Shown: positions 2,323-23,078, counted from the first letter of the stretch. The stretch: DNA of 45,026 nucleotides from a virus (UHGV-1710001), one strand, 5' to 3'. The notes: generated by a model from the sequence alone, not told the origin. Program-made: numbers and translations.

Positions 2323-3242
2323 CCAGAATCACTGAAGAGCGTATATCAGAGATTATTTCCCGTATCGAAATGTATGGTCACGGTGCTGGATATACGGCAG
2401 ATGAAGTATTGGCACTTGCCCAAATGGTTTTGGCGGCTTGCAAAGATGATAAAAAAATGAAGTTTATCGACTTGTTAGTGAAGGAGCTGCCTAAGTGCGG
2501 CGGGTGGCCTGATGGAATGAGTTATTGTTACCTACCCAGTGTCAATTTAATGGCACCATGCGCGACTTTTGCTTTTGGCTCAGACCACAAAAAAGACACT
2601 TTCTTTGGGCGCAATTTTTGTTGTGATATTGAGCTTCCAATTGGTGACCTTGATAGCGATGAATACCAGTCAGTTGTCACTCGCGAACAATACGAATCAG
2701 CTCTCATAGCGTCGCAGAAAGTCGAGTTCAATGGTGATGAACTTGAAAGTAAGACTTACAGGTTGGATTTTGGGCAATGGCTGGAACAGCAACGCGGGAA
2801 AATCGATGTGGACTGTGGTTGTGTGTCCACTGAAACATTCATGCACTGGCTGCGGGTAGCTTACGAGGCTGGCAACTATCCGGATATTCCGGATAGTTCG
2901 GTGCCAGCGCCAGGAAAGGGCGTCACCGGTGAACGTATCCGCATTAAGCCGCATGTTTATCGCGAACTGGTTAACCGTCTCCACGATACAGCGATCAAGT
3001 GTGCTGGCACCCAGCAATTACGAGAAAGAATTAGCCGTGTTTTGGGCGACGTTATTACGCCATATCATCATAAACAAGCCGAGAAAAGCGGTCTGGAAAG
3101 GTGTCGCCTTGAGGCGGCATTAAACATTAAGCCGGGGCATACGCTTGGCATTATTGATGCACTATTGGTTCATAAGATGGCCAGGGCTTTATTGCCGCTG
3201 GTGGCTGAAAAGCATGAGGTGGACCATGCCAACGAAAGCTGA
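2304..3242 (+). CDS. hypothetical protein (312 aa)
   Basis: Long ORF co-oriented with neighbours; no recognisable motif. Confidence 0.45.
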   Translation: MAQKEMTRITEERISEIISRIEMYGHGAGYTADEVLALAQMVLAACKDDKKMKFIDLLVKELPKCGGWPDGMSYCYLPSVNLMAPCATFAFGSDHKKDTFFGRNFCCDIELPIGDLDSDEYQSVVTREQYESALIASQKVEFNGDELESKTYRLDFGQWLEQQRGKIDVDCGCVSTETFMHWLRVAYEAGNYPDIPDSSVPAPGKGVTGERIRIKPHVYRELVNRLHDTAIKCAGTQQLRERISRVLGDVITPYHHKQAEKSGLERCRLEAALNIKPGHTLGIIDALLVHKMARALLPLVAEKHEVDHANES

Positions 3243-3510
3243 ATTACAGGTGCGCGTAGATGAGCTTGAAAAAGAGAACGCGAGCCTCAAAAAAATGCTG
3301 TCGCGGGCGGAAAGGGAATTATCAGGCAAATTATTGCCAGAAGAACTGCCACCAGCAGATATACCTGATCGAGTGTCCTGGTGGATGAAGTATTTCCGTG
3401 CACCGTGGGAGGCGTTTTGGTGCTACGACCATCGCAGATGGTGTGATGAACTTGATAGCAATTTTCCCTACTTTGCGGAAGGGAACACCTGCCCTCAATG
3501 CAGGGGATAG
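3226..3510 (+). CDS. hypothetical coiled-coil protein (94 aa)
   Basis: ATG 3226 preceded by GAGGTGG; the 3145 start in the ORF track overlaps the preceding gene by about 100 nt; heptad-like ELQVRVDELEKENASLKKMLSRAERELS. Confidence 0.35.
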   Translation: MPTKAELQVRVDELEKENASLKKMLSRAERELSGKLLPEELPPADIPDRVSWWMKYFRAPWEAFWCYDHRRWCDELDSNFPYFAEGNTCPQCRG

Positions 3511-3845
3511 CATTTGACGAAATCGATCACCCTATCCTGAACTTCAGAAAGAAGGTCTTTTTCACGCGCCAGGACGTCAGGATATTGACGTTCTGGCCTT
3601 ACCAGATGCCGGAGCTTCCCATTAAGCAGAATGGCCTCAGAAAACACTTTTACGCTGTGCTTTATCCCCTCTGTTTCACTTTTCAGCGTCAAAATAAAGC
3701 GCAATTGCTTATTAGCCTGATTCGGATTCAATACACGAATTTGCAGTTCGTCTATGCTGTTCCGCAATGGGATTGATGCTACCACACTGGTGCAGTCTCT
3801 GATTGTCTGAATTGAACGGCTAACATTGAGAACGTTATTGTGCAT
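3495..3845 (-). CDS. hypothetical protein (116 aa), divergent from hot
   Basis: Minus-strand ORF in the interval before hot; no motif recognised. Confidence 0.3.
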   Translation of the reverse strand: MHNNVLNVSRSIQTIRDCTSVVASIPLRNSIDELQIRVLNPNQANKQLRFILTLKSETEGIKHSVKVFSEAILLNGKLRHLVRPERQYPDVLAREKDLLSEVQDRVIDFVKCYPLH

Positions 3846-5527: not shown

Positions 5528-6571
5528 GTGAAAGCCGTAATTACTCCCTTTGTACAGAAAGAGCTTGGCCTCGCCACGTTCAAAGTGGATCAGGAGGTCA
5601 GAAAGCTGGTGGAGGCTGGCCGTAAATTTATTATGGAGCCGGTGCCGCGTGAGTTAATCGAGCACATGGAAGACGGCCTCGTTGTTACCGAGCAAACCAT
5701 GGCAACAAATGAGGCGTTGCAGCCGTTTTTTAACAGCGATGAACTGTTTCGCCGTATTGGTGGAATTGACTCGCTGGTGGCGTGGTTGCGCAGGAAAGAG
5801 GGGCAATGCCAGGCCGCAGATCGTAGCTGGTGTGACAACCATATTGTCCACGCAGAACGAGACAATAGCGCGGTGTTGTTGTGCTGGCATCACGATAACC
5901 ATTACCGGATGCGTGGTTTTAATGAGCTGAAAGAAACGCTGCACAATAATCGCGTTAACTGGATACTGGATGTCGCCCGTCAGGAAATGGGCCTTTCAAA
6001 TAGCCATGATTTAAGTATTCAGGAGCTGTGCTGGTGGGCTTTCATGCGCAACATGATGCACCTGATGCCGGAAGAAGTCTGCCGCATATCAATAAATAAG
6101 ATGAAGGCTACTCCGCAGGATAGCGGACCTCTGAAAGAGGCGGATATTCGCCCGTATGACGATCGCGCTACAGCATATGTTCAGATGATGGAAGAACGCG
6201 CCGCGCCGATGCGTGCAAAAGTATGCCCTGTGGATGTTGACTCCGACCCAGGTATGGCGCATTTCAAAATACCAAAACTTCAATCGCTAAAATTGCCCGA
6301 GTACATGGACTTTGTGGCTTCCCGTCCATGCTGTGGCTGTGGAGCTGCGGGAGCTGGCGCTCACATTACGCCTTATATCGTTCGTCATAGTCGATTATGC
6401 GCGCATGACATTTATGCTATTCCTCTGTGCCAGTCATGCCAGCGTGATATTGAGCGTGACCGCGATAATTGGGAGAAGACGCACGGTAGGCTGGCGATGC
6501 ATCAACGATTGTTCTTTGATTACGCGCTTGGAGTCGGCGCTATCACAAGTCACTCGTCGAGCGTTAGATAA
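5528..6571 (+). CDS. hypothetical Cys/His-rich protein (possible P1 pdcB equivalent)
   Basis: 347-aa ORF with GTG start; C-terminal cluster CCGCG...[15 protein letters not shown] and His-rich segment [26 protein letters not shown] suggest metal binding. Confidence 0.5.
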
Positions 6572-7197: not shown

Positions 7198-8391
7198 GTG
7201 ACCTGGGACGATCACAAGAAGAATTTTGCTCGCCTGGCGCGAGATGGTGGTTACACCATCGCACAGTATGCCGCCGAGTTTAATCTTAACCCTAATACTG
7301 CACGTCGTTATCTCCGTGCCTTCAAAGAAGACACCAGGACAGCGGACAGCCGCAAGCCAAATAAGCCAGTCAGGAAGCCACTAAAAAGCATGATCATTGA
7401 TCACTCTAATGATCAACATGCAGGTGATCACATTGCGGCTGAAATAGCGGAAAAACAAAGGGTTAATGCCGTTGTCAGTGCCGCAGTCGAGAACGCTAAG
7501 CGCCAAAATAAGCGCATAAATGATCGTTCTGATGATCATGACGTGATCATCCGCGCCCACCGTACCTTACGTGATCGCCTGGAACGCGACACCCTGGATG
7601 ATGATGGTGAACGCTTTGAATTCGAAGCTGGCGATTACCTGATAGATAACGTTGAAGCGCGGAAGGCCGCGCGCGCTATGTTGCGTCGGTCCGGGGCCGA
7701 TGTTCTGGAAACCACTCTTCTGGAAAAGTCTCTTTCTCATCTCCTTATGCTGGAGAACGCCAGGGATACGTGTATTCGCCTGGTGCAGGAAATGCGCGAT
7801 CAGCAAAAAGACGATGATGAAGGTACTCCGCCTGAATACCGTATCGCGAGCATGCTAAACAGCTGTTCCGCGCAGATAAGCAGCCTGATCAACACCATTT
7901 ACAGCATCCGGAATAACTATCGAAAAGAAAGCCGGGAGGCGGAAAAGCACGCTTTGTCTATGGGGCAAGCTGGCATTGTTAAGCTGGCATACGAACGAAA
8001 GCGTGAAAATAACTGGTCAGTGCTGGAAGCAGCTGAATTCATCGAGGCGCATGGCGGGAAAGTGCCGCCCCTGATGCTGGAGCAAATCAAAGCCGATCTG
8101 CGTGCTCCTAAGACCAATACCGATGATGAGGAAAGGCAAACTGCCGTCGGTGGCCCTTCTCTTGAAGATCTGGACAAAGTTGCGCGAGAACGGGCCGCCA
8201 ACCGCCGCGCCGATGCCGCATTGTGGATTGAGCAACGTAGGGAAGAAATCGCCGATATCGTTGATACAGGCGGTTATGGAGATGTTGATACTGAAGGTGT
8301 ATCAAACGACCCATGGCTGGAACAAGACCTGGACGAAGACGAGGAGGAAGACGAAGAAGTTACCCGCAAGCTATACGGGGATGATGATTAA
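7198..8391 (+). CDS. pacA: terminase small subunit PacA
   Basis: 397-aa ORF with GTG start, N-terminal HTH-like segment, acidic C-terminus; contains the pac site; size matches recalled P1 PacA. Confidence 0.8.
7391..7549. promoter_or_regulatory. pac packaging site with hexanucleotide repeats containing Dam GATC sites
   Basis: Four TGATCA hexamers at about 7391, 7398, 7410 and 7425 and three TGATC(A/G) at about 7521, 7533 and 7544, separated by about 90 bp; matches the 4+3 architecture of P1 pac. Confidence 0.75.
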
Positions 8392-9875
8392 TGGCCAGAA
8401 GTTGCGTAACGGATCCACGTTGGCGCGAGCTGGTGGCGCTATATCGTTATGACTGGATTGCGGCCGCTGATGTTTTGTTCGGCAAAACACCTACCTGGCA
8501 GCAGGATCTGATTATTGAGTCTGTGCAGGAACAGGGTAGCAAGACATCTGTTTCGTCTGGTCACGGTACCGGGAAATCAGACATGACTTCTATCATGATC
8601 ATGTTGTTCATAATCATGTATCCCGGTGCCCGCGCCATTATCGTTGCGAACAAAATTCAGCAGGTAATGACCGGTATATTCAAGTACATCAAGATAAACT
8701 GGGCTACTGCCACCAGCCGTTTTCCATGGCTTGCTGATTATTTTGTTCTGACAGAAACCGCTTTCTATGAGGTTACTGGTAAAGGTGTATGGACTGTAGT
8801 ACCGAAGGGCTTTCGTCTGGGAAGTGAAGAAGCTCTCGCCGGTGAACACGCAGATCATCTTCTGTATATTATCGATGAAGCCTCCGGTGTCAGTGATAGA
8901 GCTTTCGGTATCATCACCGGTGCTCTTACCGGACAGGATAACCGCATCTTATTACTGTCACAGCCTACACGCCCAAGCGGCTATTTCTACGATACTCACC
9001 ATAAACTGGCCAAGCGTCCTGGTAACCCAGATGGCGTTTATACGGCGATCACGCTTAACAGTGAGGAATCACCGCTGGTAACGCCAGAATTTATCAAAAT
9101 GAAGCTGGCGGAGTACGGCGGGCGTGATAACCCTATGTACATGATTAAGGTACGCGGGCTATTCCCTAAATCACAGGACGGCTTCCTTCTTGGACGTGAT
9201 GAGGTTGAACGTGCGACGCGGCGGAAAGTCAAGATTGCCAAAGGATGGGGCTGGCTTGCATGTGTGGACGTTGCTGGTGGTACAGGACGGGATAAGTCCG
9301 TTATCAATATCATGATGGTGTCCGGCCAGCGAAATAAACGCCGTGTAATCAACTATCGAATGCTGGAATACACAGACGTTACAGAAACGCAGCTTGCCGC
9401 CAAAATTTTCGCAGAATGTAATCCTGAGCGATTCCCCAATATCACCATAGCGATAGACGGCGATGGCCTGGGTAAAGCAACGGCGGATCTGATGTACGAG
9501 TATTATGGTATTACCGTACAGCGTATACGCTGGGGTAAAAAGATGCATAGCCGTGAAGATAAGAGCCTGTACTTTGATAAACGTGCTTATGCCAATGTTC
9601 AAGCCGCAGAGGCCGTAAAATCTGGTCGTATGAGACTGGATAAGGGTAATGAAACTATTGAGGAAGCGTCGAAAATCCCTGTAGGGATTAACTCCGCAGG
9701 TCAATGGAAGGTGATGAGTAAGGAGGATATGAAGAAAAAACTCAACCTGCACTCACCAGACCATTGGGATACATATTGTTTCGCTATGCTGGCGGATTAT
9801 GTTCCCCAGGATGAAGTGCTTAGCGTCGAAGACGAAGCGCAGGTTGATGAAGCTCTGGCATGGCTTAATGAATGA
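8391..9875 (+). CDS. pacB: terminase large subunit PacB
   Basis: 494-aa ORF overlapping the pacA stop; Walker A SGHGTGKS, Walker [11 protein letters not shown]. Confidence 0.8.
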
Positions 9876-9878
9876 ATA

Positions 9879-9895
9879 TTTGCTCTAATAAATTG
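9879..9895 (+). promoter_or_regulatory. C1 operator-like site just after pacB
   Basis: TTTGCTCTAATAAATTG, 15/17 match to the C1 operator; positioned to control the downstream structured-RNA/ant unit. Confidence 0.5.
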
Positions 9896-10026
9896 TGTTT
9901 TTTAGCTACCGATGCTACATTGAACCTGACCTCTTGCGCCTTGTGGCATTTTCGGTTTATGCTTATCAGGCACCTCATTAAAACGGGTGCCGGGATTGAG
10001 ACCCCGGATAATGCAAAAGGCGACAC

Positions 10027-10049
10027 AGACGCCAAAAGCGTCTTTTTTT
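10027..10049 (+). terminator. intrinsic terminator-like hairpin plus T-run
   Basis: AGACGC-CAAAA-GCGTCT stem-loop followed by TTTTTTT. Confidence 0.45.
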
Positions 10050-10084
10050 GTGTCATGCCATCGCACAGCCATACGTAGCGTTTA

Positions 10085-10210
10085 GCTCAGAGATCAATGG
10101 TAGTGCTGGCTGGGCTGCCGAAAGGCAGGCCGGTTCCCTTTTGCGCCGGTAGTCTCAACCCAGTCAGTGCTACCGCCATTGAGATTGAGACCTCACGCGG
10201 TAGCTCCTTA
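10085..10210 (+). ncRNA. structured RNA region, candidate c4-like antisense RNA and target
   Basis: Extended imperfect inverted repeats (TCAATGGTAGTGCTGGCTGGG at about 10094-10114 against CCCAGTCAGTGCTACCGCCATTGA at about 10159-10182) and a GAAA-capped hairpin CTGCC-GAAA-GGCAG, directly upstream of a small ORF coupled to ant. Confidence 0.3.
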
Positions 10211-10234
10211 AATTAGCAAAAGGAGGCTGCCATT

Positions 10235-10456
10235 GTGGCTACTATCCCTACCCCTGCTCATCCTGAATTTATCTGGCGCTTTTACTCCTGCCAAAAACGT
10301 CACTATCACTTCGTTATTGCACCGACAGAAGATGAGGCACGTTCTCAGCTTCCTGACGCCCCATGTATTTTCTCTGCCCGTTTTTCCACTGATTCACACA
10401 ATTCTCTCAGTTACTGGTGCCTCCCTGTTAACGCTTCTGCTCTGGAGGGGCTATGA
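10235..10456 (+). CDS. small ORF translationally coupled to ant (icd-like position)
   Basis: 73-aa ORF with GTG start after AAAAGGAGG; its stop overlaps the ant ATG (ATGA). An alternative overlapping 81-aa hydrophobic ORF at 10233..10478 cannot be excluded. Confidence 0.35.
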   Translation: MATIPTPAHPEFIWRFYSCQKRHYHFVIAPTEDEARSQLPDAPCIFSARFSTDSHNSLSYWCLPVNASALEGL

Positions 10457-11568
10457 GAACATCATTAGTCACCCGTAAAGAAATGATCGAGGCAATTGAA
10501 CAGCACACTGCCTGTATCAGTACCAGGGATATACCTGGCGTTATTGCCAACTACTTCATGATCACCAAACAACTTTACCGGAGAAAGGACAAAAACGCGG
10601 TTCACCGCATTCTGCTAACCGATATCCGTGAATACCTGCTCGAACAGGGTCATCTGAATTACGCAACCGTCGCAGCCGAAGCACGCAAGGAGGCACACAG
10701 AATGAAAGCAACTAACGTTAAATCAGAAAAAACTCATGCACCTTCAGTTCAGGAATCGGAGCTGGTGGTTGTTCAGAATCAGTCTGATGAAATTCCCGTT
10801 CTGGAATGGCTGGGAGTGCGTGTAGTGACAACTAAGATCCTTGCTAAGGGGTATGGGACAGATGCGGATAACATCAAGAAGAACTTTTCCCGTAATGCTG
10901 AACGTTTTTGTGAAGGCAAGCATTTCTATAAAGTTATTGGAGATGATTTGAACAATTTGCGGGTGACTTTAAGTAACTCACAAAATCCTATCTCTCCTAA
11001 AGCCCGCTCACTCATCCTCTGGACGGAACGCGGCGCAGCCCGCCACGCTAAAATGATCGAAACCGATCAGGCATGGGCATTCTTTGAAAAACTGGAAGAC
11101 AGCTACTTCCGACAAAAAGAACAGCAACCGATCGCAATCCCCCAGACGCTTCCAGAAGCTCTGCGCCTTGCTGCCGAACTGGCTGAACAAAAGCAACTTC
11201 TGGAACAGAAAGCCCATCAGCTAAATCAGCAGCTGGTGGCCGCAGCCCCCAAAGTCGATTTTGCCGACCGGGTATCAGTGGCTAAGGGGATCCTGATTGG
11301 GAATTTTGCAAAGGTCGTTGGACTTAAACAAAATGCGCTGTTTGCCTGGTTACGGGAGAACGGCATTCTGATAGCGTCCGGCGGCCGTAAAAATGTACCG
11401 TTCCAGCAGTACATAAACGCCGGATATTTCACAGTGAAAGAAGTGGTGCTGGATGATGAAGAGGGCTACCAGATACGGCTGACGCCCCAATTAACGGGGA
11501 AAGGCCAACAGTGGTTGACGCGTAAACTGCTCGATGCTGGCTTGTTAAAACCGGTGGCGGCTGAATAA
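10453..11568 (+). CDS. phage antirepressor (Ant-like, AntA/ORF6N-type N-domain plus KilA-C-type C-domain)
   Basis: 371-aa ORF; segments VLEWLGVRVVTTKILAKGYGTDADNIKKNFSRNAERFCEGKHFYKV and FADRVSVAKGILIGNFAKVVGLKQNALFAWLRENGIL resemble antirepressor domains. Confidence 0.6.
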   Translation: MRTSLVTRKEMIEAIEQHTACISTRDIPGVIANYFMITKQLYRRKDKNAVHRILLTDIREYLLEQGHLNYATVAAEARKEAHRMKATNVKSEKTHAPSVQESELVVVQNQSDEIPVLEWLGVRVVTTKILAKGYGTDADNIKKNFSRNAERFCEGKHFYKVIGDDLNNLRVTLSNSQNPISPKARSLILWTERGAARHAKMIETDQAWAFFEKLEDSYFRQKEQQPIAIPQTLPEALRLAAELAEQKQLLEQKAHQLNQQLVAAAPKVDFADRVSVAKGILIGNFAKVVGLKQNALFAWLRENGILIASGGRKNVPFQQYINAGYFTVKEVVLDDEEGYQIRLTPQLTGKGQQWLTRKLLDAGLLKPVAAE

Positions 11569-11600
11569 TGGAAGAATGCCCGGTTGATGCCGGGCATAAT

Positions 11601-12452
11601 TTATTGCGCGCTTTCGGGGTTGTCGTTTACTGGCTGCCCCTTCTTGGTTTTACGGCTGCGCGTAACTGATGCGGCTGACTTAACCTTTTTCTCTTCGCGA
11701 GTGATGGCAATTTGTTTTTTTACATTTTCAATATCTGCCAGGCGATATATTTTTGCTTGTGGCCAGCGGTCGCAGATGATCGGTTCTATGGAGTCATAAA
11801 GGCTAAATTTTGCTTTTTCGAATTCACCGTTGATGATGATTCCATCACGGAGAGTTTCATCGCAGATAAACACGCCACACAGCGGTACATGGTAACTAAC
11901 TGATTTACCATCATTGTAGTTAGGGCTACTGGAGATGTAGTGGACGCGCAGCATTGTTTCGCTAAAGCCGTGTACGCGCATACGGAATTTTTCATCCTCC
12001 GGGTACTGCTTCATTAGCTCTTTTGTTGCTTCCAGGTTCTCTATGTATTTCGCACTGTGCTCATTGATCCCCGCGCTTTTTTGGATGCGAATGTCCTTAT
12101 CAATCAGATGAATAATGCGGCCAGCGGTCATGTTGACGCTGTTCACAGCTTCTGTCTGATAAGTTGTAACCTTGCGCACACCGCGAAGGATGTTAGGCAC
12201 TGGATATAAAATAGTCTTTGGGATATTGAGGTCTGGGTACTGTTCCAGTTCCCGCGCCATTAAAGTCCATTTATCAATTTCAGCCTGAATGCTGTCAGTT
12301 TCTTTGAACGGTAGAACGACAACCGGGCGTACAGGACGACCGTCGCTGGCTGTATCAACGTGTTGGGCGCGTGCAACAGCTTTTTTTAGAAAGAGATCCC
12401 TGAAGCTGACGAACTCCTGGTACAGTTGTTCGCCGTAGACATAATTTATCAT
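11601..12452 (-). CDS. c1: C1 repressor of lysis
   Basis: 283-aa product MINYVYGEQLYQEFVSFRDLFLKKAVARAQHVD... matches recalled P1 C1 in sequence and length. Confidence 0.9.
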   Translation of the reverse strand: MINYVYGEQLYQEFVSFRDLFLKKAVARAQHVDTASDGRPVRPVVVLPFKETDSIQAEIDKWTLMARELEQYPDLNIPKTILYPVPNILRGVRKVTTYQTEAVNSVNMTAGRIIHLIDKDIRIQKSAGINEHSAKYIENLEATKELMKQYPEDEKFRMRVHGFSETMLRVHYISSSPNYNDGKSVSYHVPLCGVFICDETLRDGIIINGEFEKAKFSLYDSIEPIICDRWPQAKIYRLADIENVKKQIAITREEKKVKSAASVTRSRKTKKGQPVNDNPESAQ

Positions 12453-12546
12453 TGATCCTCCTCCAGAATTGACATGGTCAATAACGCCCGGCTGAGAAAA
12501 CCGGTCATTACTGACCTATATTATAGAGGGATCAAACAAAAATAAT

Positions 12547-12563
12547 AGATTTATTAGTGCATT
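12547..12563 (-). promoter_or_regulatory. C1 operator-like site between coi and c1
   Basis: Reverse complement AATGCACTAATAAATCT, about 14/17 match to the operator consensus. Confidence 0.35.
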
Positions 12564-12772
12564 TATTGTGAGTCTAACTGGTTAGTTGCCATGAGATATT
12601 CGATTGTGTCAGTGAGGTCATCCAGGTCGTCTTGGGTGATGCGGTACTCCTGATTGGATATCTTTGAGTAGTGTTCAGCAATGGCGCGGGCAGCGTCGGT
12701 TTCGGCAGGGTCTACAGATAAAGCGTTAGAGCAATGTCTAACGTCGTCGATGGTTGGTTGAATGAAAGCCAT
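12563..12772 (-). CDS. coi: Coi, C1 inactivator
   Basis: 69-aa product MAFIQPTIDDVRHCSNALSVDPAETDAARAIAEHYSK... directly upstream of c1 on the same strand, as in P1 immC. Confidence 0.8.
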   Translation of the reverse strand: MAFIQPTIDDVRHCSNALSVDPAETDAARAIAEHYSKISNQEYRITQDDLDDLTDTIEYLMATNQLDSQ

Positions 12773-13010
12773 AATTATGCCTCACTGTATTGACAACACA
12801 GAGCCTGAAGCTCTGACCTACTGTTTCACCCATGATCCATGCTGGGGTAATCTAACAACATTGCGCTGTGTGTAAGATGAGCAATGCATAGCTGTAATGC
12901 CGTTGTATAAGGTTTCCCTGTTTGCTCATTTCCTTCTGAGCCGCTCTACAACGCTGAAGACACATTAAATAGTGAATCCAAAGTCGTATTACGTAACGGC
13001 GGCAAAACTA

Positions 13011-13027
13011 TAATTTATTAGAGCAAT
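13011..13027 (-). promoter_or_regulatory. C1 operator (Op99-type) upstream of coi/c1
   Basis: Reverse complement ATTGCTCTAATAAATTA, 16/17 match. Confidence 0.65.
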
Positions 13028-13093
13028 TGTCAAACAACTATGAAAAACAATCCAGTTTTTAGCTGGTGGAGTGGGATTTTTCTCTCAAAATTT

Positions 13094-13110
13094 ATTGCTC
13101 TAATAATTAT
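13094..13110 (+). promoter_or_regulatory. C1 operator (Op99-type) upstream of coi/c1
   Basis: ATTGCTCTAATAATTAT, 14-15/17 match; 36 bp from the transposon left inverted repeat. Confidence 0.6.
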
Positions 13111-13145
13111 TGATTTTTGTGCGCAGCTGGACGTAAACTCCTCTT

Positions 13146-13183
13146 GGGGGAACCGCAGAATTCGGAAAAAATCGTACGCTAAG
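13146..13183. repeat. left 38-bp terminal inverted repeat of the transposon
   Basis: GGGGGAACCGCAGAATTCGGAAAAAATCGTACGCTAAG. Confidence 0.9.
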
Positions 13184-13334
13184 CTAACGGTGTTCTCGTG
13201 ACAGCTCTTTGACTAGGCTTTCTAAGGCCATTCTGATAGCCCTGACTTCCTGAAAAGCCATGGCTAAAATTTGTGCGGCTAAAAGGGATAACCGATGGTA
13301 AAGTAAGTTATCCCTGTCGAGATACTGAAAAGCG

Positions 13335-14912
13335 TTATCCTCGTTTTTCCCAAAACTGTTTTGCCAGTTCGCTCAGAGCGCTAGTTAACTGAGCGACAGA
13401 TTTCGCACTTTGCAAATTATTCTGCCCGGTCTGTACATTGGTATCAGCAGCATCGCGTATATTGATAATACTGCGGTTTATGTCTTCACTTACTGCTCCC
13501 TGCTGCTCGACCGCAGTCGCTATTTGCGCGTTCATGTCGGTAATTTCGTTAACGCGTTGGCCAATTCCATCAAGAGCTGTAGCTGCTTCCTCTGCGTGAG
13601 CTACACTCGTGTGCGCTTGCCGACTACTTTGCTCCATGACTGTAACAGCGGATTGCGCTCGCTCTTGTAGAGCGCTGATCATGCTTTGAATATCCGTTGT
13701 CGATTGCTGTGTGCGAGCAGCAAGACTGCGAACCTCATCGGCGACAACAGCAAAACCACGCCCCTGCTCACCAGCACGCGCGGCCTCAATTGCTGCGTTG
13801 AGTGCCAACAAATTCGTTTGCTCGGCGATCCCTCGTATAACGTCAAGAACTTTTGATATCTCGTTACTTTGACCTTCAAGCTCATGAATAACCTGAGTGG
13901 CTTGCCTAATTTCACCTTCAAGGGCAGTGATTGACTGGCTTGTGTGGGCTACCAGACGCTGGCCAGATGCCGTCTCAGTGTCTGCTCTTCCGGCCGCATC
14001 TGCAGCATGCTGTGCATTGCTCGCAACCTCTTGAATGCTTGCCACCATTTGGTTTACTGCCGTTGCTATTTGATCTGTCTCTGCCTGCTGCTCAACTGTA
14101 AGTACATTGCTTGACTCAATATCCTTTAGTAGGCCTCGGGTGTGTTCGCTAAGCCGATTTGATGCATCACCTATGCGACCTACTATGGCGCCTGTTTCAG
14201 CTTGCATCATTCGTAAAGCAAACTCTATTTGGCCAAACTCATCGGTGCGCCCAGTGTAGAGGGATTGACTTAATGGGTTATTGGAAATATTCCTGGCTCT
14301 TTCAACCAGTCTTCCAAGAGGAGAGAGAATAGCCAAAACACTAACAGAGCTTAAGCTTCCTGACATTAAAGTGGCTAACAATAAGCTGCTTATTGATGTA
14401 TCAGTAAGCATGCCGGCAGCCATTGCGCTTGATATAATACTACCCCATATGAGCAAGAGTATTTTCACGGAAAAGCTAGCAGCCAATTTCGGCCTCGCGG
14501 CCTTCCCGCTTCTCAATTGAGCATATAATTTTTCCGCAGCCAAAACCTGCTCAGGTTCAGGCTTGGTCCTTACAGACTGGTATTCAACAATCGAACCATT
14601 CTTAGCTATTGGCGTTACATAAGCACTTACCCAATAGTGGTCGCCATTTTTACAGCGATTTTTTACTAGCCCCATCCATGAGCGGCCAGATTTTAATGTA
14701 CTCCACATATGCTCAAATGCAGCAGGCGGCATATCTGGGTGTCTTACGATGTTGTGAGGCTGGCCTAATAGTTCTTCCTCAGTGAAACCACTGATTTTAA
14801 TGAAGTCAGGATTAACGTACGTGATATGGCTTTGAGGGGAGGTAGTCGAAAGAATATTGGCATCTTTTGGGAGTTCTAAGTTTCGACCCGTCACTGGTAA
14901 ATTCTGGCGCAT
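13335..14912 (-). CDS. methyl-accepting chemotaxis protein-like protein (transposon passenger)
   Basis: 525-aa ORF with N-terminal PAS-like region, hydrophobic segment and C-terminal MCP signalling domain ([31 protein letters not shown]); matches the known MCP-like ORF of Tn1721. Confidence 0.8.
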
Positions 14913-15059
14913 AAGAACCTCAAGGGTTGGCTGTTTTATTTTATTGTTTTCGGCATTAAGCCCAATTTCTTGAGCGTTACGATAAAGCTAGCATGGAAAC
15001 GATAGGTGCAAGCAAGTTAAGGGTTGCATCGCGCATGTCAATCTAGGCTATACCCTAAC

Positions 15060-15200
15060 TTGATGTCAGGCAGGGCCGCGCCGCTTCGTCAGAATAGAGT
15101 CTGCTTTCCCATTTTTTGACACATGCCCGCGAAGGTTATAGATTTCAGCCTGACAGAAATGGGCTTTGAGGCACAACGGAACAGAAAGTGCACTTAAGCC
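15060..15200. promoter_or_regulatory. res resolution site region
   Basis: Between the mcp-like gene and tnpR; contains inverted TGTCAGGC / GCCTGACA motifs typical of resolvase binding subsites. Boundaries approximate. Confidence 0.45.
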
Positions 15201-15221
15201 GCCTTCAACCAAGGAGACATC

Positions 15222-15782
15222 GTGCAGGGGCACCGCATCGGCTACGTCCGGGTCAGCAGCTTTGACCAGAACCCGGAACGCCAGCTGGAACAAACCCAGG
15301 TGAGCAAGGTGTTCACCGACAAGGCATCGGGCAAGGACACCCAGCGCCCCCAGCTCGAAGCGCTGCTGAGCTTCGTCCGCGAAGGCGATACAGTGGTGGT
15401 GCACAGCATGGATCGGCTGGCCCGCAACCTCGATGACCTGCGTCGCTTGGTACAGAAGCTGACTCAGCGCGGCGTGCGCATCGAGTTCCTGAAGGAGGGC
15501 CTGGTGTTCACTGGCGAGGACTCGCCGATGGCCAACCTGATGCTGTCGGTGATGGGGGCCTTCGCTGAGTTCGAGCGCGCCCTGATCCGCGAGCGGCAGC
15601 GTGAGGGCATCGCCTTGGCCAAGCAGCGTGGCGCGTACCGGGGCCGCAAGAAAGCCCTGTCCGATGAGCAGGCTGCTACCCTGCGGCAGCGAGCGACGGC
15701 CGGCGAGCCCAAGGCGCAGCTTGCCCGCGAGTTCAACATCAGCCGGGAAACCCTCTACCAGTACCTCCGCACGGACGACTGA
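15222..15782 (+). CDS. tnpR: serine recombinase resolvase TnpR
   Basis: 186-aa ORF with GTG start after AAGGAGA; N-terminal catalytic motif GYVRVSSFDQN and C-terminal HTH, typical Tn21/Tn1721 resolvase. Confidence 0.9.
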   Translation: MQGHRIGYVRVSSFDQNPERQLEQTQVSKVFTDKASGKDTQRPQLEALLSFVREGDTVVVHSMDRLARNLDDLRRLVQKLTQRGVRIEFLKEGLVFTGEDSPMANLMLSVMGAFAEFERALIRERQREGIALAKQRGAYRGRKKALSDEQAATLRQRATAGEPKAQLAREFNISRETLYQYLRTDD

Positions 15783-15785
15783 CAC

Positions 15786-18752
15786 ATGCCGCGTCGCTTG
15801 ATCCTCTCGGCCACGGAGCGGGACACCCTGCTTGCGCTGCCGGAAAGCCAGGATGACCTGATCCGCTACTACACCTTCAACGACTCCGACCTGTCGCTGA
15901 TCCGCCAGCGACGCGGCGACGCCAACCGCCTCGGCTTCGCCGTGCAGCTCTGCCTGCTGCGCTACCCCGGTTACGCGCTGGGAACCGACAGCGAGCTGCC
16001 CGAGCCGGTCATCCTGTGGGTGGCGAAGCAAGTCCAGGCCGAGCCGGCGAGCTGGGCAAAGTACGGCGAGCGCGACGTGACCCGTCGCGAGCATGCCCAG
16101 GAACTGCGCACCTACCTGCAACTGGCCCCGTTCGGCCTGTCCGACTTCCGCGCCCTGGTGCGCGAGCTAACCGAGCTGGCCCAGCAGACCGACAAAGGCT
16201 TGCTGCTGGCCGGTCAGGCCCTGGAGAGCCTACGGCAGAAACGACGCATCCTGCCGGCGCTGAGCGTGATTGACCGGGCCTGCTCGGAAGCCATTGCGCG
16301 AGCCAATCGGCGGGTCTACCGCGCCCTGGTCGAACCACTCACGGACTCGCATCGGGCCAAGCTGGACGAGCTGTTGAAGCTCAAGGCCGGCAGCAGCATC
16401 ACCTGGTTGACCTGGCTGCGCCAGGCACCGCTGAAACCCAACTCTCGGCACATGCTGGAACACATCGAGCGGCTGAAGACATTTCAGTTGGTGGACTTGC
16501 CCGAAGGCCTGGGCCGGCACATCCACCAGAACCGCCTGCTCAAGCTGGCCCGCGAGGGTGGGCAGATGACGCCCAAAGACCTCGGTAAGTTCGAGCCGCA
16601 GCGCCGCTACGCGACCCTGGCCGCCGTGGTGCTGGAGAGCACCGCGACCGTGATCGATGAGCTGGTCGATCTGCATGACCGCATCCTGGTCAAGCTGTTC
16701 AGCGGCGCGAAGCACAAGCATCAGCAGCAGTTCCAGAAGCAGGGCAAGGCGATCAACGACAAGGTGCGCCTGTACTCCAGGATCGGCCAGGCGCTGCTGG
16801 AAGCGAAGGAAAGCGGCAGCGACCCCTATGCCGCCATCGAGGCGGTGATTCCCTGGGACGAGTTCACCGAGAGCGTCAGCGAGGCCGAGCTGCTGGCCCG
16901 GCCGGAAGGCTTCGACCACCTGCACCTGGTCGGCGAGAACTTCGCCACCCTGCGCCGTTACACGCCGGCCTTGCTGGAGGTGCTGGAACTGCGCGCCGCG
17001 CCGGCCGCGCAAGGCGTGCTGGCAGCCGTGCAGACCCTGCGTGAGATGAACGCCGACAACCTGCGCAAGGTGCCGGCCGATGCACCCACGGCCTTCATCA
17101 AGCCGCGCTGGAAGCCGCTGGTGATCACCCCGGAAGGCCTCGACCGGAAATTCTACGAAATCTGCGCCCTGTCCGAGCTGAAGAACGCCCTGCGCTCCGG
17201 CGACATCTGGGTCAAGGGCTCGCGGCAGTTCCGCGACTTCGACGACTACCTGCTGCCGGCCGAGAAGTTCGCCGCACTCAAGCGCGAGCAGGCCCTGCCC
17301 CTGGCGATCAACCCGAACAGCGACCAGTACCTGGAAGAGCGTTTGCAGCTGCTGGACGAGCAGTTGGCCACCGTCACCCGCCTGGCCAAGGACAACGAGC
17401 TGCCCGATGCCATCCTCACCGAGTCAGGGCTGAAAATCACCCCGCTGGATGCGGCGGTGCCGGATCGGGCGCAGGCGCTGATCGACCAAACCAGCCAGTT
17501 ACTGCCGCGCATCAAGATCACCGAACTGCTGATGGACGTGGACGACTGGACGGGCTTCAGCCGCCACTTCACCCACTTGAAGGACGGGGCCGAGGCCAAA
17601 GACAGGACGTTGCTGCTGTCCGCAATCCTCGGTGATGCGATCAACCTCGGGCTGACCAAGATGGCCGAGTCGAGCCCCGGCCTGACCTACGCCAAGCTGT
17701 CCTGGCTGCAAGCCTGGCACATCCGCGACGAAACCTATTCGGCGGCCTTGGCCGAGCTGGTCAACCACCAGTATCGCCACGCCTTTGCCGCCCACTGGGG
17801 CGACGGCACGACCTCATCCTCCGATGGCCAGCGCTTCCGCGCGGGTGGCCGGGGCGAGAGCACCGGGCACGTCAACCCGAAGTACGGTAGCGAGCCGGGA
17901 CGGCTGTTCTATACCCATATCTCCGACCAGTACGCGCCGTTCAGCACCCGCGTGGTGAATGTCGGCGTCCGCGATTCCACCTATGTGCTCGACGGCCTGC
18001 TGTACCACGAGTCCGACCTGCGGATCGAGGAGCACTACACCGACACGGCCGGCTTCACCGATCACGTCTTTGCCCTGATGCACCTGCTAGGCTTCCGCTT
18101 CGCGCCGCGCATCCGCGACCTCGGCGAAACCAAGCTGTACGTGCCGCAGGGCGTGCAAGCCTACCCGACGTTGCGCCCGCTGATCGGCGGCACCCTGAAC
18201 ATCAAGCACGTGCGTGCCCACTGGGACGACATCCTGCGCCTGGCCAGCTCGATCAAGCAGGGCACCGTCACCGCCTCGCTGATGCTGCGCAAGCTCGGCA
18301 GCTACCCGCGCCAGAACGGACTGGCCGTGGCCCTGCGCGAGCTGGGCCGGATCGAGCGCACGCTGTTCATCCTGGACTGGCTGCAAAGTGTTGAACTGCG
18401 CCGCCGCGTGCATGCCGGCCTGAACAAAGGTGAGGCGCGCAACTCGCTGGCCAGGGCGGTGTTCTTCAACCGCCTTGGGGAAATCAGGGATCGGAGCTTC
18501 GAGCAGCAGCGCTACCGGGCCAGCGGCCTCAACCTGGTGACGGCGGCTATCGTGCTGTGGAACACGGTGTACCTGGAACGCGCCACCCAGGGGTTGGTCG
18601 AGGCCGGCAAGCCGGTGGACGGCGAGCTGCTGCAATTCCTGTCGCCGCTGGGCTGGGAGCACATCAACCTAACCGGCGATTACGTCTGGCGGCAGAGCCG
18701 CAGACTGGAAGACGGGAAGTTTCGGCCCTTACGGATGCCCGGAAAACCTTAG
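15786..18752 (+). CDS. tnpA: Tn3-family transposase TnpA
   Basis: 988-aa ORF, the length of Tn21-subgroup transposases, ending inside the right inverted repeat. Confidence 0.9.
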
Positions 18753-18785
18753 CGTACGATTTTTTCCGAATTCTGCGGGCTCCCC
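18748..18785. repeat. right 38-bp terminal inverted repeat of the transposon
   Basis: Reverse complement reads GGGGAGCCCGCAGAATTCGGAAAAAATCGTACGCTAAG; overlaps the tnpA stop. Confidence 0.9.
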
Positions 18786-18798
18786 CTCTTCGGATCTG

Positions 18799-18832
18799 AT
18801 AACTTCGTATAGCATACATTATACGAAGTTAT
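18799..18832 (+). other. loxP: loxP recombination site
   Basis: Exact ATAACTTCGTATA-GCATACAT-TATACGAAGTTAT (13-bp inverted repeats, 8-bp spacer). Confidence 0.97.
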
Positions 18833-18850: not shown

Positions 18851-18925
18851 TGATCAATTTACCTGTAAATCCATACAGTTCAATACCTTATCAGGTCAAA
18901 TAGTGATCACTTGATCATTTGATCA
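18851..18925 (+). promoter_or_regulatory. cre upstream regulatory region with clustered Dam GATC sites
   Basis: Four GATC sites within about 75 bp (ATGATCAATT, GTGATCACTTGATCATTTGATCAAGG) between loxP and cre; Dam-regulated cre promoters are established for P1. Confidence 0.4.
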
Positions 18926-19021: not shown

Positions 19022-19243
19022 ATGGGATATTCAGCTGCTAAAGTGTCCACTCATCTTGAGCTTGAGAAAAACCGTGGTTACTGGCGGGCAAAAGGGTTTG
19101 ATCGTGATAGTTGCCAACTGTCATTATCGCGCGGTGAAGAGAAAATAGAACGCACGCGCGGTCGCTGGCGTTTCTATGACGAGAACCATAAACAGGTAAA
19201 GGCAGAGCCGATCCTGTACACTTTACTTAAAACCATTATCTGA
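19022..19243 (+). CDS. small ORF upstream of cre (possible cra equivalent)
   Basis: 73-aa ORF ending 8 nt before the cre ATG; identity by position only. Confidence 0.35.
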   Translation: MGYSAAKVSTHLELEKNRGYWRAKGFDRDSCQLSLSRGEEKIERTRGRWRFYDENHKQVKAEPILYTLLKTII

Positions 19244-19250
19244 GTGTTAA

Positions 19251-20282
19251 ATGTCCAATTTACTGACCGTACACCAAAATTTGCCTGCATTACCGGTCGA
19301 TGCAACGAGTGATGAGGTTCGCAAGAACCTGATGGACATGTTCAGGGATCGCCAGGCGTTTTCTGAGCATACCTGGAAAATGCTTCTGTCCGTTTGCCGG
19401 TCGTGGGCGGCATGGTGCAAGTTGAATAACCGGAAATGGTTTCCCGCAGAACCTGAAGATGTTCGCGATTATCTTCTATATCTTCAGGCGCGCGGTCTGG
19501 CAGTAAAAACTATCCAGCAACATTTGGGCCAGCTAAACATGCTTCATCGTCGGTCCGGGCTGCCACGACCAAGTGACAGCAATGCTGTTTCACTGGTTAT
19601 GCGGCGGATTCGAAAAGAAAACGTTGATGCCGGTGAACGTGCAAAACAGGCATTGGCGTTCGAACGCACTGATTTCGACCAGGTTCGTTCACTCATGGAA
19701 AATAGCGATCGCTGCCAGGATATACGGAATCTGGCATTTCTGGGGATTGCTTATAACACCCTGTTACGTATAGCCGAAATTGCCAGGATCAGGGTTAAAG
19801 ATATCTCACGTACTGACGGTGGGAGAATGTTAATCCATATTGGCAGAACGAAAACGCTGGTTAGCACCGCAGGTGTAGAGAAGGCACTTAGCCTGGGGGT
19901 AACTAAACTGGTCGAGCGATGGATTTCTGTCTCTGGTGTGGCTGATGATCCGAATAACTACCTGTTTTGCCGTGTCAGAAAAAATGGTGTTGCCGCGCCA
20001 TCTGCCACCAGCCAGCTATCAACTCGCGCTCTGGAAGGGATTTTTGAAGCAACTCATCGATTGATTTACGGCGCTAAGGATGACTCTGGGCAGAGATACC
20101 TGGCCTGGTCTGGACACAGTGCCCGTGTCGGAGCCGCGCGAGATATGGCCCGCGCCGGAGTTTCAATACCGGAGATCATGCAAGCTGGTGGCTGGACCAA
20201 CGTAAATATTGTCATGAACTATATCCGTAACCTGGATAGTGAAACAGGGGCAATGGTGCGCCTGCTGGAAGATGGCGATTAG
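19251..20282 (+). CDS. cre: Cre tyrosine site-specific recombinase
   Basis: 343-aa product beginning MSNLLTVHQNLPALPVDATSDEVRKNLMDMFRDRQAFSEHTWKMLLSVCRSWAAWCKLNNRKWFPAEPEDVRDYLLYLQARGLAVKTIQQHLGQLNMLHRRSGLPRPSDSNAVSLVMRRIRKENVDAGERAK..., as recalled for P1 Cre; adjacent loxP. Confidence 0.97.
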   Translation: MSNLLTVHQNLPALPVDATSDEVRKNLMDMFRDRQAFSEHTWKMLLSVCRSWAAWCKLNNRKWFPAEPEDVRDYLLYLQARGLAVKTIQQHLGQLNMLHRRSGLPRPSDSNAVSLVMRRIRKENVDAGERAKQALAFERTDFDQVRSLMENSDRCQDIRNLAFLGIAYNTLLRIAEIARIRVKDISRTDGGRMLIHIGRTKTLVSTAGVEKALSLGVTKLVERWISVSGVADDPNNYLFCRVRKNGVAAPSATSQLSTRALEGIFEATHRLIYGAKDDSGQRYLAWSGHSARVGAARDMARAGVSIPEIMQAGGWTNVNIVMNYIRNLDSETGAMVRLLEDGD

Positions 20283-20332: not shown

Positions 20333-20644
20333 ATGAGAAAGGATTTCAACATCGACGGAAAATATGTAGTGCTGTCTGTAAGCACTAATATTCAGTCGCC
20401 AGCCGTCATTGTCACCGTAAAGTTGAGCGATAGGATGCCTGATATCGACTCGATATCTGTTGCGTTCCCCGTTAAAAGCATGCGGAGTGCTGAACATTTT
20501 GTGATGAATGCAACGGAGGAGGAAGCGCGGCGCGGGCTTACTAGAGTGATGGGGGAATTTGGCGAACTCCTGGGTAAGGTAAACAATGCCCTTTCAATCA
20601 GTTCAGCAAGGTCCAAAGCGTTAACAGCTTCCATGATGAAATAA
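20333..20644 (+). CDS. hypothetical protein (103 aa) between cre and ref
   Basis: ORF following an operator-like site; no motif recognised; overlapped by an antisense ORF that I reject. Confidence 0.4.
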   Translation: MRKDFNIDGKYVVLSVSTNIQSPAVIVTVKLSDRMPDIDSISVAFPVKSMRSAEHFVMNATEEEARRGLTRVMGEFGELLGKVNNALSISSARSKALTASMMK

Positions 20645-22469: not shown

Positions 22470-23078
22470 ATGTCTAATACCTCGGCAAATGAAATTGTAC
22501 CGCACTTACCGCTAATTTTCGAAAATGAAGCTAATGGGATTCTTCAGGATCTGGCCTATACTCCATCGCTTATGGGGTTGATGATGTTCCCGACAGAAGA
22601 GGAGCTGAAAGCAGCGAGAAGCTACATAATTAACGTTTTTGAAGAGTGTTACCGAGCCGGTCATTTGCGCATTATGGGCTTTACTAATGAAGAAAACTTG
22701 TTCGGATACGCCTTAATCTTCGGACATCCATCGGGAAATTTTCCGTTGTACTGTCATAAAATATATGTATATGAGCAATATCGTGGTAATGGACTTGGAA
22801 GTAATATACTGGCAGAAATACTTGCATTTCCAAATGAGGTCGCTTTGATTTGCCAGTCTGATTTGGTTCCTTTTTATGAATCAGCCGGAATGCACTTTAA
22901 AGGAAATTACACCACTCCATCAGTCGCCAATTTCAAAAAAACTCGCGGCATGTATGAGGGGCTTTGTTTGATGAGCACTGAAAAAAATGCAAACTCTAAT
23001 GGTGTACCTATATTCATGCTGAACGATAACGATATTGATAACATCATACAGGCTATCGCATCATCGGAACCACGATAA
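22470..23078 (+). CDS. GNAT-family N-acetyltransferase
   Basis: 202-aa ORF; acetyl-CoA binding motif A YEQYRGNGLGSNIL (R/Q-x-x-G-x-G/A) and motif B LVPFYESAGMHFKG; flanked by AT-rich DNA. Confidence 0.65.
   Translation: MSNTSANEIVPHLPLIFENEANGILQDLAYTPSLMGLMMFPTEEELKAARSYIINVFEECYRAGHLRIMGFTNEENLFGYALIFGHPSGNFPLYCHKIYVYEQYRGNGLGSNILAEILAFPNEVALICQSDLVPFYESAGMHFKGNYTTPSVANFKKTRGMYEGLCLMSTEKNANSNGVPIFMLNDNDIDNIIQAIASSEPR

Follow-up and report, generated by a model that had tools for sequence, protein, structure and literature searches.

Organization of the locus

The analysed window, a stretch of 45,026 nucleotides, carries the c1-coi-loxP-cra-cre module collinear with that of phage P1, as is characteristic of P1-like phage-plasmids (Punavirus), and a complete Tn1722 of 5640 bp (13146-18785) is inserted between coi and loxP (Table 1). 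The c4/icd/ant module, which offers another route of induction, adjoins c1 in the same backbone, and the P3cre, P2cre and P1cre promoters are located to the right of the insertion. The map of promoters and operators is the GenBank annotation of P1 (AF234172), transferred through a gap-free alignment. For P4cre, P2coi and the LexA box we rely on P1 database annotations that are partly predictions.

Table 1. Features of the coi-cre region and of the inserted transposon (window coordinates)
Feature	Position	Strand	Description
c1 repressor gene	11601-12452	-	283 aa, intact; NF041318 611.6 bits; 281/283 residues vs P1 C1.100
coi	12563-12772	-	intact; 67/69 residues match P1
imcB	12738-12833	-	intact; protein identical to P1
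imcA	12852-12965	-	intact; 1 change vs P1
C1 operator Oc1d (Op99d)	13011-13027	-	operator match and P1 annotation; overlaps P1coi promoter (13004-13033)
C1 operator Oc1e (Op99e)	13094-13110	+	operator match and P1 annotation
P4cre promoter	13110-13139	+	-35 TTGATT 13110-13115, -10 TAAACT 13134-13139; P1 94740-94769
Target-site duplication CTCTT, left copy	13141-13145		single copy in P1 (94771-94775) and in empty-site relatives
IRL of Tn1722	13146-13183	+	38 bp, GGGGGAACCGCAGAATTCGGAAAAAATCGTACGCTAAG; same in Tn1721/Tn1722 copies of 5 other P1-like plasmids
Candidate weak intrinsic terminator after mcp	13285-13314	-	10-bp stem, 12-nt loop; UUUU at 13281-13284
mcp-like gene (orfI of Tn1721)	13335-14912	-	525 aa; PAS, HAMP and MCPsignal domains; at IRL end
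res region	14913-15221		309-bp intergenic; divergent promoter-like sites, repeated TGTCA/TGACA; putative core ~15010-15160
tnpR, serine resolvase	15222-15782	+	186 aa; Pfam Resolvase PF00239 and HTH_7 PF02796
tnpA, Tn3-family DDE transposase	15786-18752	+	988 aa; DUF4158 and DDE_Tnp_Tn3
IRR of Tn1722	18748-18785	-	38 bp, as reverse complement GGGGAGCCCGCAGAATTCGGAAAAAATCGTACGCTAAG
Target-site duplication CTCTT, right copy	18786-18790		perfect 5-bp repeat of left copy
loxP	18799-18832	+	intact, single copy, 34/34 to canonical site
P2coi promoter with LexA box	18856-18883	-	LexA CTGTAAATCCATACAG at 18863-18878; P1 41-68, LexA 46-65
cra	19022-19243	+	intact
cre	19251-20282	+	intact; protein identical to P1 Cre

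The first-pass annotation of this DNA had described a Tn1722-type element of the Tn3 family with an mcp-like gene, res, tnpR, tnpA and 38-bp inverted repeats, and all of these features are present. It had also placed the insertion 8 bp from loxP, which indeed begins 8 bp beyond the right CTCTT, and had proposed that the immC operators are separated from loxP and cre, as is the case, since Oc1d and Oc1e are on the left of the element and loxP on its right. The orientation assigned to the mcp-like gene was likewise correct: it is encoded on the minus strand, and its transcription runs toward coi and c1.

Identity of the transposon

In the literature (PMC5736529), Tn1722 is described as the minor transposon of Tn1721; its inverted repeats measure 38 bp, its direct repeats 5 bp, and its IRL is a variant. 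We judged the identity of the element against annotated Tn1721 and Tn1722 copies in other plasmids. It matches over 5640 of 5640 positions the Tn1722 copies that occupy four different sites in P1-like plasmids other than this one, each of them with its own 5-bp duplication. One of these copies belongs to the full Tn1721 of CP056619, which has three inverted repeats, 11.1 kb and the tetR/tetA module; thus, the comparison with Tn1721 suggested in the first-pass annotation gave complete identity over the Tn1722 part. The element of the window itself is not a full Tn1721, because only two inverted repeats occur in the window, IRR directly adjoins P1 DNA and the length is that of Tn1722 (about 5.6 kb), with neither a tetR/tetA module nor a third inverted repeat. 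No resistance gene is present in it. IRL and IRR agree at 35 of 38 positions, a slight difference that is a trait of Tn1722 and Tn1721, and the 30-nt core of the repeats occurs exactly twice in the window, where no occurrence is expected by chance.

The tnpA product scores 517 bits with PF01526 and 1289 bits with NF033527 (cut-off 500), and its size agrees with the ~990 aa of Tn3-type transposases. The gene points outward, to loxP, cra and cre. The tnpR gene is co-directional with tnpA, and res is located upstream of tnpR, an arrangement typical of the Tn3 family. The res region contains an inverted repeat (15013-15022/15053-15062) and promoter-like sites in both directions (15116-15144 on the plus strand and 15069-15040 on the minus strand); the boundaries of its subsites can be placed only tentatively from such motifs. 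The mcp-like protein is as long as WP_001323889.1, the annotated protein of the 100%-identical copies. A pattern-based scan yielded no terminator downstream of tnpA or mcp. Nevertheless, direct folding revealed a hairpin 20 nt past the mcp stop codon (-12.9 kcal/mol, z = -2.8), which the scan had overlooked because its loop is longer than 8 nt, and which might function as a weak terminator. Given its intact ORFs and ends, the element is likely active in transposition and, being intact and identical in sequence to circulating copies, it is presumably still mobile.

Origin of the insertion

The empty site was rebuilt by deleting positions 13146-18790, i.e., the element and one CTCTT. The rebuilt site aligns with P1 AF234172 over 1356 bp with 0 gaps and 96.5% identity, and retains one CTCTT at P1 94771-94775. 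The first-pass annotation had predicted the sequence of the empty site, and the exact 38-mer was found verbatim in a near-isogenic public contig, CATVGR010000027.1 (GCA_958335915.1), that shares 100% identity with positions 8248-13145 of the window and 99.94% with positions 18785-40647. In addition, three other public assemblies share the right junction over 40 nt, i.e., ENA ERZ28647276, whose scaffold_125 is 100% identical to positions 13880-40647 of the window, GCA_003123085.1 (QBCI01000147.1) and ENA ERZ652037 (NODE_305). These assemblies were found only when the protein of the adjacent DarB gene was looked up for exact matches. Equivalent look-ups of C1 and of the GNAT protein did not recover the left junction elsewhere, as they returned only contigs with an empty or differently occupied site.

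To place the insertion among curated sequences, we compared the entire region (7 kb) and segments of 240 bp spanning each junction with INPHARED, PLSDB and the complete RefSeq genomes of E. coli, and neither junction was covered by any phage, plasmid or E. coli record of these collections. The top matches with apparent full coverage, such as SJ46, CP056619 and p548b, were discarded, since they are made up of rearranged pieces and carry the transposon elsewhere. Exact-pattern scans for both junctions in IMG/VR, the GTDB species representatives and the JGI metagenomes returned nothing.

These data leave a practically negligible probability that the insertion is an assembly artefact, in which the repeated transposon would have been collapsed or misjoined into a P1-like contig. 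Such an error could be suspected because Tn1722 is highly abundant, with matches in more than 5000 plasmid records, and because short-read contigs often break within it, as two of the retrieved contigs do. However, no target duplication would result from a misjoin, and here the two copies of CTCTT are perfect and the rebuilt site has no gaps; moreover, an isogenic empty site exists, and three other datasets yielded the same right junction in independent assemblies, so that an artefact is effectively refuted. This result upholds the earlier reading of the perfect CTCTT duplication as the mark of a genuine transposition. It is also highly improbable that homologous recombination, or fusion of plasmids via a Tn1722 copy, brought in the element, e.g., in an unresolved or aberrantly resolved cointegrate. 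Complex islands bounded by transposons or IS26 do occur in the same interval of other P1-like plasmids, such as NZ_CP048823, but here both ends adjoin P1 DNA that is contiguous in the relatives, the same 5-bp repeat is found on both flanks, no foreign DNA lies between the inverted repeats and the P1 DNA, and the window contains neither additional DNA nor a third inverted repeat or another copy. We have rejected this origin on these grounds.

Thus, the insertion is almost certainly the outcome of a recent, simple event of replicative transposition, by which Tn1722 entered a P1-like phage-plasmid between coi and loxP, and we have found no evidence that contradicts this structural conclusion. According to the known biology of the Tn3 family, TnpA would have worked on the two 38-bp ends and opened the target CTCTT with a 5-bp stagger, a cointegrate between the donor and the P1-like replicon would then have been formed, and TnpR would have resolved it at res, leaving one copy between the CTCTT repeats.

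A different question is whether the insertion has been functionally selected, i.e., whether the uncoupling of LexA-P2coi from coi and of C1-P4cre from cre, together with read-through of mcp or tnpA into coi/c1 and cra/cre, alters inducibility or plasmid stability and so explains its persistence in several isolates. We consider this unlikely. The position relative to the annotated promoters speaks for it, as do the occurrence of the same insertion in at least four assemblies and the fact that the coi-loxP interval has been hit repeatedly in other P1-like plasmids by IS1, IS5-type elements and Tn1721-family ends. However, the four assemblies are identical or nearly so and possibly represent one clone, in which case the recurrence reflects descent, and repeated insertions into non-coding DNA are equally explained by tolerance at that place.

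Possible regulatory consequences

Judging from position, the insertion may have functional consequences for the phage. It is located 6 bp downstream of the -10 box of P4cre and cuts off this C1-controlled promoter from cra and cre. The P2coi region is identical in sequence to that of P1 and lies to the right of loxP, so that it is now 5.6 kb further from imcA-imcB-coi-c1. Therefore, P4cre and the LexA-controlled P2coi both appear to be uncoupled from their target genes, which would be the only unusual aspect of this insertion. The transcript of P4cre, controlled by C1 through Oc1e, would now begin at the first bases of IRL and run antisense to mcp; as P4cre would fire into the transposon, cra and cre would depend on P3cre, P2cre, P1cre and any read-through from tnpA. 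A LexA site that overlaps a coi promoter is cited as the link between the SOS response and lysis (PMC4713147). Since P2coi has been displaced and its transcript would first run antisense through tnpA and tnpR, the route proposed from SOS to Coi is probably weakened or lost.

Transcription in the same two directions, at a low level and independent of SOS and C1, could come from the outward genes, mcp on the left and tnpA on the right. Read-through from mcp into coi and c1 is geometrically possible, but it is probably weak, because a hairpin and a UUUU follow mcp and the only promoter-like site for this gene is inside res, where binding of the resolvase is expected. P1coi/Oc1d and Pc1, the main promoters of coi and c1, are untouched by the insertion, and hence the immunity phenotype may be unchanged. 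That the insertion rewires the lysis-lysogeny switch of P1, with P2coi severed from coi and replaced by constitutive or TnpR-controlled read-through from mcp, appears quite doubtful to us. If it were true, induction of the prophage would be detached from the host SOS response and the expression of cre would be blind to C1, and the cargo-less transposon would represent a natural regulatory mutation leading to a more plasmid-like or a leakier phage-plasmid.

An influence of the insertion on Cre-mediated recombination, raised in the first-pass annotation, is not expected and is probably nil, as loxP is intact and its 34-bp core is enough. Cre needs only the 34-bp loxP, and the natural upstream flank has no effect in vitro (PMC2409434), which led us to reject a role of the DNA around loxP in the chemistry of Cre. 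That TnpR/res is redundant with Cre/loxP, as proposed at the same time, seems reasonable for the resolution of plasmid dimers, which TnpR/res could also perform, and for that function only. The distance between loxP and the pac cluster would now be ~11.3 kb, compared with ~5.7 kb before. The P1-like phage SJ46, with an 8.6-kb Tn1721 derivative elsewhere, is still inducible and transducing (PMC11117986), and thus the added size alone is tolerated.

Significance and comparison with known insertions

As a discovery this insertion carries little weight, since Tn1722 is a textbook transposon and the event, although real, is an ordinary one; insertions of the Tn1721 family in P1-like phage-plasmids have already been published as a route to acquire resistance genes. 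Its value lies elsewhere. It documents a "seed" transposon without cargo between coi and loxP, an interval which in other P1-like plasmids is the home of multiresistance islands bounded by Tn1721. The near-isogenic public plasmids with and without the insertion offer a natural experiment on the roles of two little-studied promoters, P2coi/LexA and P4cre/Oc1e. Finally, the native control region is split, and this matters for any use of the loxP/cre region or for the prediction of inducibility.

Transposons of several kb are tolerated by other temperate phage-plasmids of the P1 group, such as P7 with its Tn3-type bla transposon and P1Cm with Tn9, where both the transposons and the sites are different. 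With respect to known Tn1722 (Schmitt laboratory; Tn3 family, its transposase being labelled "TnAs1 family" by PGAP), the element shows the same IRL-mcp-res-tnpR-tnpA-IRR order and no difference at all, and only its insertion site is particular.

Tn1721 is known to move into P1-like phages (PMC11117986), and the closest parallel is Tn1721-blaCTX-M-27 in Salmonella phage SJ46/P1-CTX and related phage-plasmids, where the same transposon backbone is found in the same kind of host replicon, a few kb from cre. The shared parts of the SJ46 element are 99.9-100% identical to ours. However, it is located between ref and mat, carries ISEcp1-blaCTX-M-27-IS903 within mcp and is flanked by the duplication TATGAA, whereas the element of the window is cargo-free and lies between coi and loxP. 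Six P1-like plasmids, e.g., pEcQE11-421-2 (NZ_CP048823) and pLR-29-1_1 (NZ_AP027516), have resistance islands ended by Tn1721 about 175 bp to the left of loxP, with a Tn1721-family IRL and mcp end in the same imcA-loxP interval. These islands occupy another exact site (...CCCCC/ATTAAGTAGTG) in the opposite orientation, and in them the transposon, which has been truncated, continues into IS26, a class 1 integron and cargo of the oxqAB type (annotated oqxAB). Taken together, the 100%-identical Tn1722 copies and the published Tn1721-family insertions in P1-like phages show that both the element and its kind of host are already known, and the site has no other example in the curated plasmid, phage and complete E. 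coli collections.

Structure of the element

We have delimited the element by reading its boundaries and checking them with a script. It is 5640 bp long, its terminal repeats IRL and IRR are identical at 35 of 38 positions, and CTCTT stands directly outside both ends (13141-13145 and 18786-18790). A 30-nt core of the inverted repeat occurs exactly twice in the 45 kb, where no occurrence is expected by chance. The element contains three long ORFs, and the GC content rises from about 45-47% in the phage backbone and mcp to 60-66% across tnpR-tnpA. The motifs in the gap between mcp and tnpR are as expected of a res site. The first-pass annotation had described the repeats, the CTCTT duplication, the genes and the distance to loxP exactly as found here.

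Features of the element, its surroundings and the comparison plasmids (window positions unless a plasmid or contig is named)
Feature	Position	Strand	Details
IRL	starts 13146		38 bp; GGGGGAACCGCAGAATTCGGAAAAAATCGTACGCTAAG
IRR	ends 18785		inverted partner of IRL; inward reading GGGGAGCCCGCAGAATTCGGAAAAAATCGTACGCTAAG
mcp-like ORF		-	525 aa; PAS, HAMP, MCP-signalling domains
mcp-tnpR gap			309 bp; divergent promoter-like hexamers, repeated TGTCA/TGACA motifs
tnpR		+	186 aa; serine resolvase
tnpA	after tnpR	+	988 aa; Tn3-family DDE transposase
loxP	18799-18832		perfect, single copy; 8 bp from right CTCTT
P4cre	-35 13110-13115; -10 13134-13139		overlaps Oc1e (13094-13110); in P1, annotated as possibly driving cra and cre under C1 control
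P2coi	18856-18883	leftward	just right of loxP; overlapping LexA box CTGTAAATCCATACAG (18863-18878), identical to P1
pac hexamer cluster	7391-7577, within pacA		eight TGATCA/TGATCG-type hexamers; matches expected P1 pac site
C1-operator-like site	9879-9895		beside isrK-C4-icd-ant module
isrK-like RNA	9970-10048
C4 antisense RNA	10093-10180
icd-like ORF	in 9970-11568 module		small
ORF6N/ANT (KilAC) antirepressor	10453-11568		371 aa
GNAT acetyltransferase-like ORF	22470-23078	+	202 aa; low-GC (0.39) patch between mat and darB
Tn1721-end junctions	L009 930-945; L010 ~16000-16335		NZ_AP027516, NZ_CP048823 and four others
IS1/IS5-type insertions	L003 (p548b) 2561-3541; L005 2544-3241; also L019, L022, L028		coi-loxP/cra spacer
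CP056619 copy			duplication AATGC; full Tn1721, third inverted repeat and tetR/tetA, 11.1 kb
p548b copy	within ref		duplication CTCTT at 6307-6311 and 11952-11956
pEP91B-3 copy	between icd-like gene and ant		duplication CTGTT
FDAARGOS_1337 plasmid copy			duplication TCATA

A genuine and recent insertion

When 13146-18790 is removed, the window aligns to the P1 reference (AF234172) across 1356 bp with zero gaps, and P1 has a single CTCTT at the insertion point (94771-94775), in agreement with the empty site that the first-pass annotation expected around loxP. The restored sequence shares 98.9% identity with phage vB_EcoM-673R5. We located occupied and empty sites by looking for exact copies of the 2255-aa DarB protein encoded nearby, and both states are present in one lineage. 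An identical 40-nt right junction is found in three independent assemblies (ENA ERZ28647276 scaffold_125, GCA_003123085.1 QBCI01000147.1 and ENA ERZ652037 NODE_305), the first of which shows 100% identity with the window across 13880-40647. The predicted empty-site sequence has an exact copy in contig CATVGR010000027.1 of GCA_958335915.1, which matches the window at 100% identity from 8248 to 13145 and at 99.94% from 18785 to 40647. Both site states, together with the restored P1 alignment, thus demonstrate that the insertion is a genuine and recent event, polymorphic within one P1-like plasmid lineage.

An assembly artefact is rejected by the gap-free restored site, the recurrence of the same junction in three assemblies and the empty-site relative, and a fusion product by that restored site and by the empty and occupied states in a single lineage. 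We found neither junction in the INPHARED phages, PLSDB plasmids, complete RefSeq E. coli genomes, IMG/VR, GTDB species representatives and JGI metagenomes. The exact site is missing from the curated sets of phages, plasmids and complete genomes that we searched, and present in a few draft or metagenome assemblies of the same lineage.

Where the window has an intact 103-aa c8 (20333-20644), some contigs, including the near-isogenic empty-site contig L011 (20017-20226), carry a 69-aa ORF; this is consistent with the single indel separating them from the window.

Consequences for the control region around loxP

The P1 promoter and operator annotations were carried to the window via the gap-free alignment, and we infer the bearing of the insertion on phage control from position. 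The target CTCTT lies 6 bp downstream of the P4cre -10 hexamer, and P4cre, as placed, would fire into IRL, antisense to mcp; cra and cre retain P3cre, P2cre and P1cre, all to the right of the insertion. The transposon also separates P2coi from imcA-imcB-coi-c1 by 5.6 kb, and a transcript crossing this stretch would run antisense to tnpA and tnpR for about 3.5 kb. A LexA site overlapping a coi promoter is the cited link from the SOS response through the Coi anti-repressor to lytic growth (PMC4713147). Such a long untranslated antisense transcript from P2coi probably would not survive, and therefore the LexA-P2coi route to coi has likely been weakened or abolished. The insertion leaves the main promoters, P1coi with Oc1d (13004-13033) and Pc1, untouched. 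The displacement of P4cre and P2coi is a concrete consequence missing from the first-pass list, and the splitting of this bidirectional control region by Tn1722 is the only mildly interesting aspect of the insertion; near-isogenic plasmids with and without the insertion make its effect testable.

The mcp gene has the orientation toward coi/c1 needed for read-through. A pattern scan found no terminator after mcp; folding gave a 10-bp hairpin followed by UUUU, 20 nt past the stop codon (13285-13314; -12.9 kcal/mol, z = -2.8). The sole promoter-like site for mcp is inside res and would presumably be repressed by bound resolvase. Read-through from mcp is possible, though probably weak. No terminator was predicted downstream of tnpA, which reads outward to loxP, cra and cre. 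Since both genes point outward, the latter without a predicted terminator, transcription could leak from the transposon to either side, in the directions of the two displaced promoters.

The insertion, suggested at first pass to affect Cre recombination, is not expected to alter its chemistry: loxP is intact, and its 34 bp suffice for Cre. The natural upstream flank of loxP had no effect in vitro and bound neither ArgR nor PepA (PMC2409434). The distance from loxP to the pac cluster is about 11.3 kb with the transposon versus about 5.7 kb without it. Depending on replicon length and packaging direction, this longer distance and the larger genome could leave loxP outside the terminally redundant part of the first headful. 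The proposed redundancy of TnpR/res with Cre/loxP would be reasonable for dimer resolution, because a plasmid dimer has two res sites in direct repeat.

A recurrent landing site in a P1-like phage-plasmid

In six P1-like plasmids of PLSDB, a Tn1721-family IRL and mcp 3' end meet P1 DNA about 175 bp to the left of loxP (...CTGCGGTTCCCCC joined to ATTAAGTAGTG), in the orientation opposite to the window element. In pEcQE11-421-2 (NZ_CP048823), this end bounds an IS26/class 1 integron/oqxAB island. Several other P1-like plasmids carry IS1 or IS5-type (ISKpn26) elements between coi and cra. This repeated occupancy shows that the coi-loxP spacer is a tolerated and recurrent landing site, where a cargo-less Tn1722 could plausibly serve as the seed for later resistance-gene accretion.

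By its gene content (lpa, pacA, pacB, c1, coi, loxP, cra, cre, c8, ref, mat, darB and further P1 genes), the window is classed as a typical P1-like phage-plasmid, and it shares about 98% identity with many Escherichia plasmids in the range of roughly 95-100 kb. The phage genes on either side of the insertion are all intact; Cre does not differ from its P1 counterpart, and C1, Coi, Cra, ImcA and ImcB differ by 0-2 residues. A second immunity-I-like module, common to many P1-like plasmids, lies between pacB and c1 (9970-11568), where P1 is empty. The mat-darB region holds the EcoP1 res/mod restriction genes in P1 and some relatives (such as comparison sequence L024), and RelA/SpoT, SIR2 or YaaC genes in others; it is thus a variable cargo slot. 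Near the right end, group II intron domains D1-D4 matched Rfam at 44187-44456 (+; 96.9 and 41.6 bits). This match may be a fragment, since no intron-encoded protein ORF is visible in the remaining ~570 bases.

Comparison with Tn1721 and related elements

Tn1721 combines a complete "minor transposon", Tn1722, with a tet region; it carries three inverted repeats of 38 bp, with IRL as a variant, duplicates 5 bp of its target, and has a Tn1722 part that is independently mobile (PMC5736529). All the testable defining features of Tn1722 were found in the window element, which is assigned to Tn1722 rather than Tn1721 because its sequence has no tet module and no third inverted repeat. The comparison to Tn1721 proposed at first pass gave a base-for-base match: all 5640 bp recur without a single difference in four other P1-like plasmids, where each copy is flanked by a 5-bp duplication of its own. 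The p548b copy is an independent Tn1722 insertion with the same pentamer in a different context (GCCAATG-CTCTT-GGCGCTC), probably by coincidence or a mild target preference. Salmonella phage SJ46 has the same transposon backbone, but it carries blaCTX-M-27 and is sited between ref and mat. Experiments have shown that Tn1721 derivatives move into P1-like phages (PMC11117986). The element is already known, being the same as circulating copies, and this kind of event is already published.
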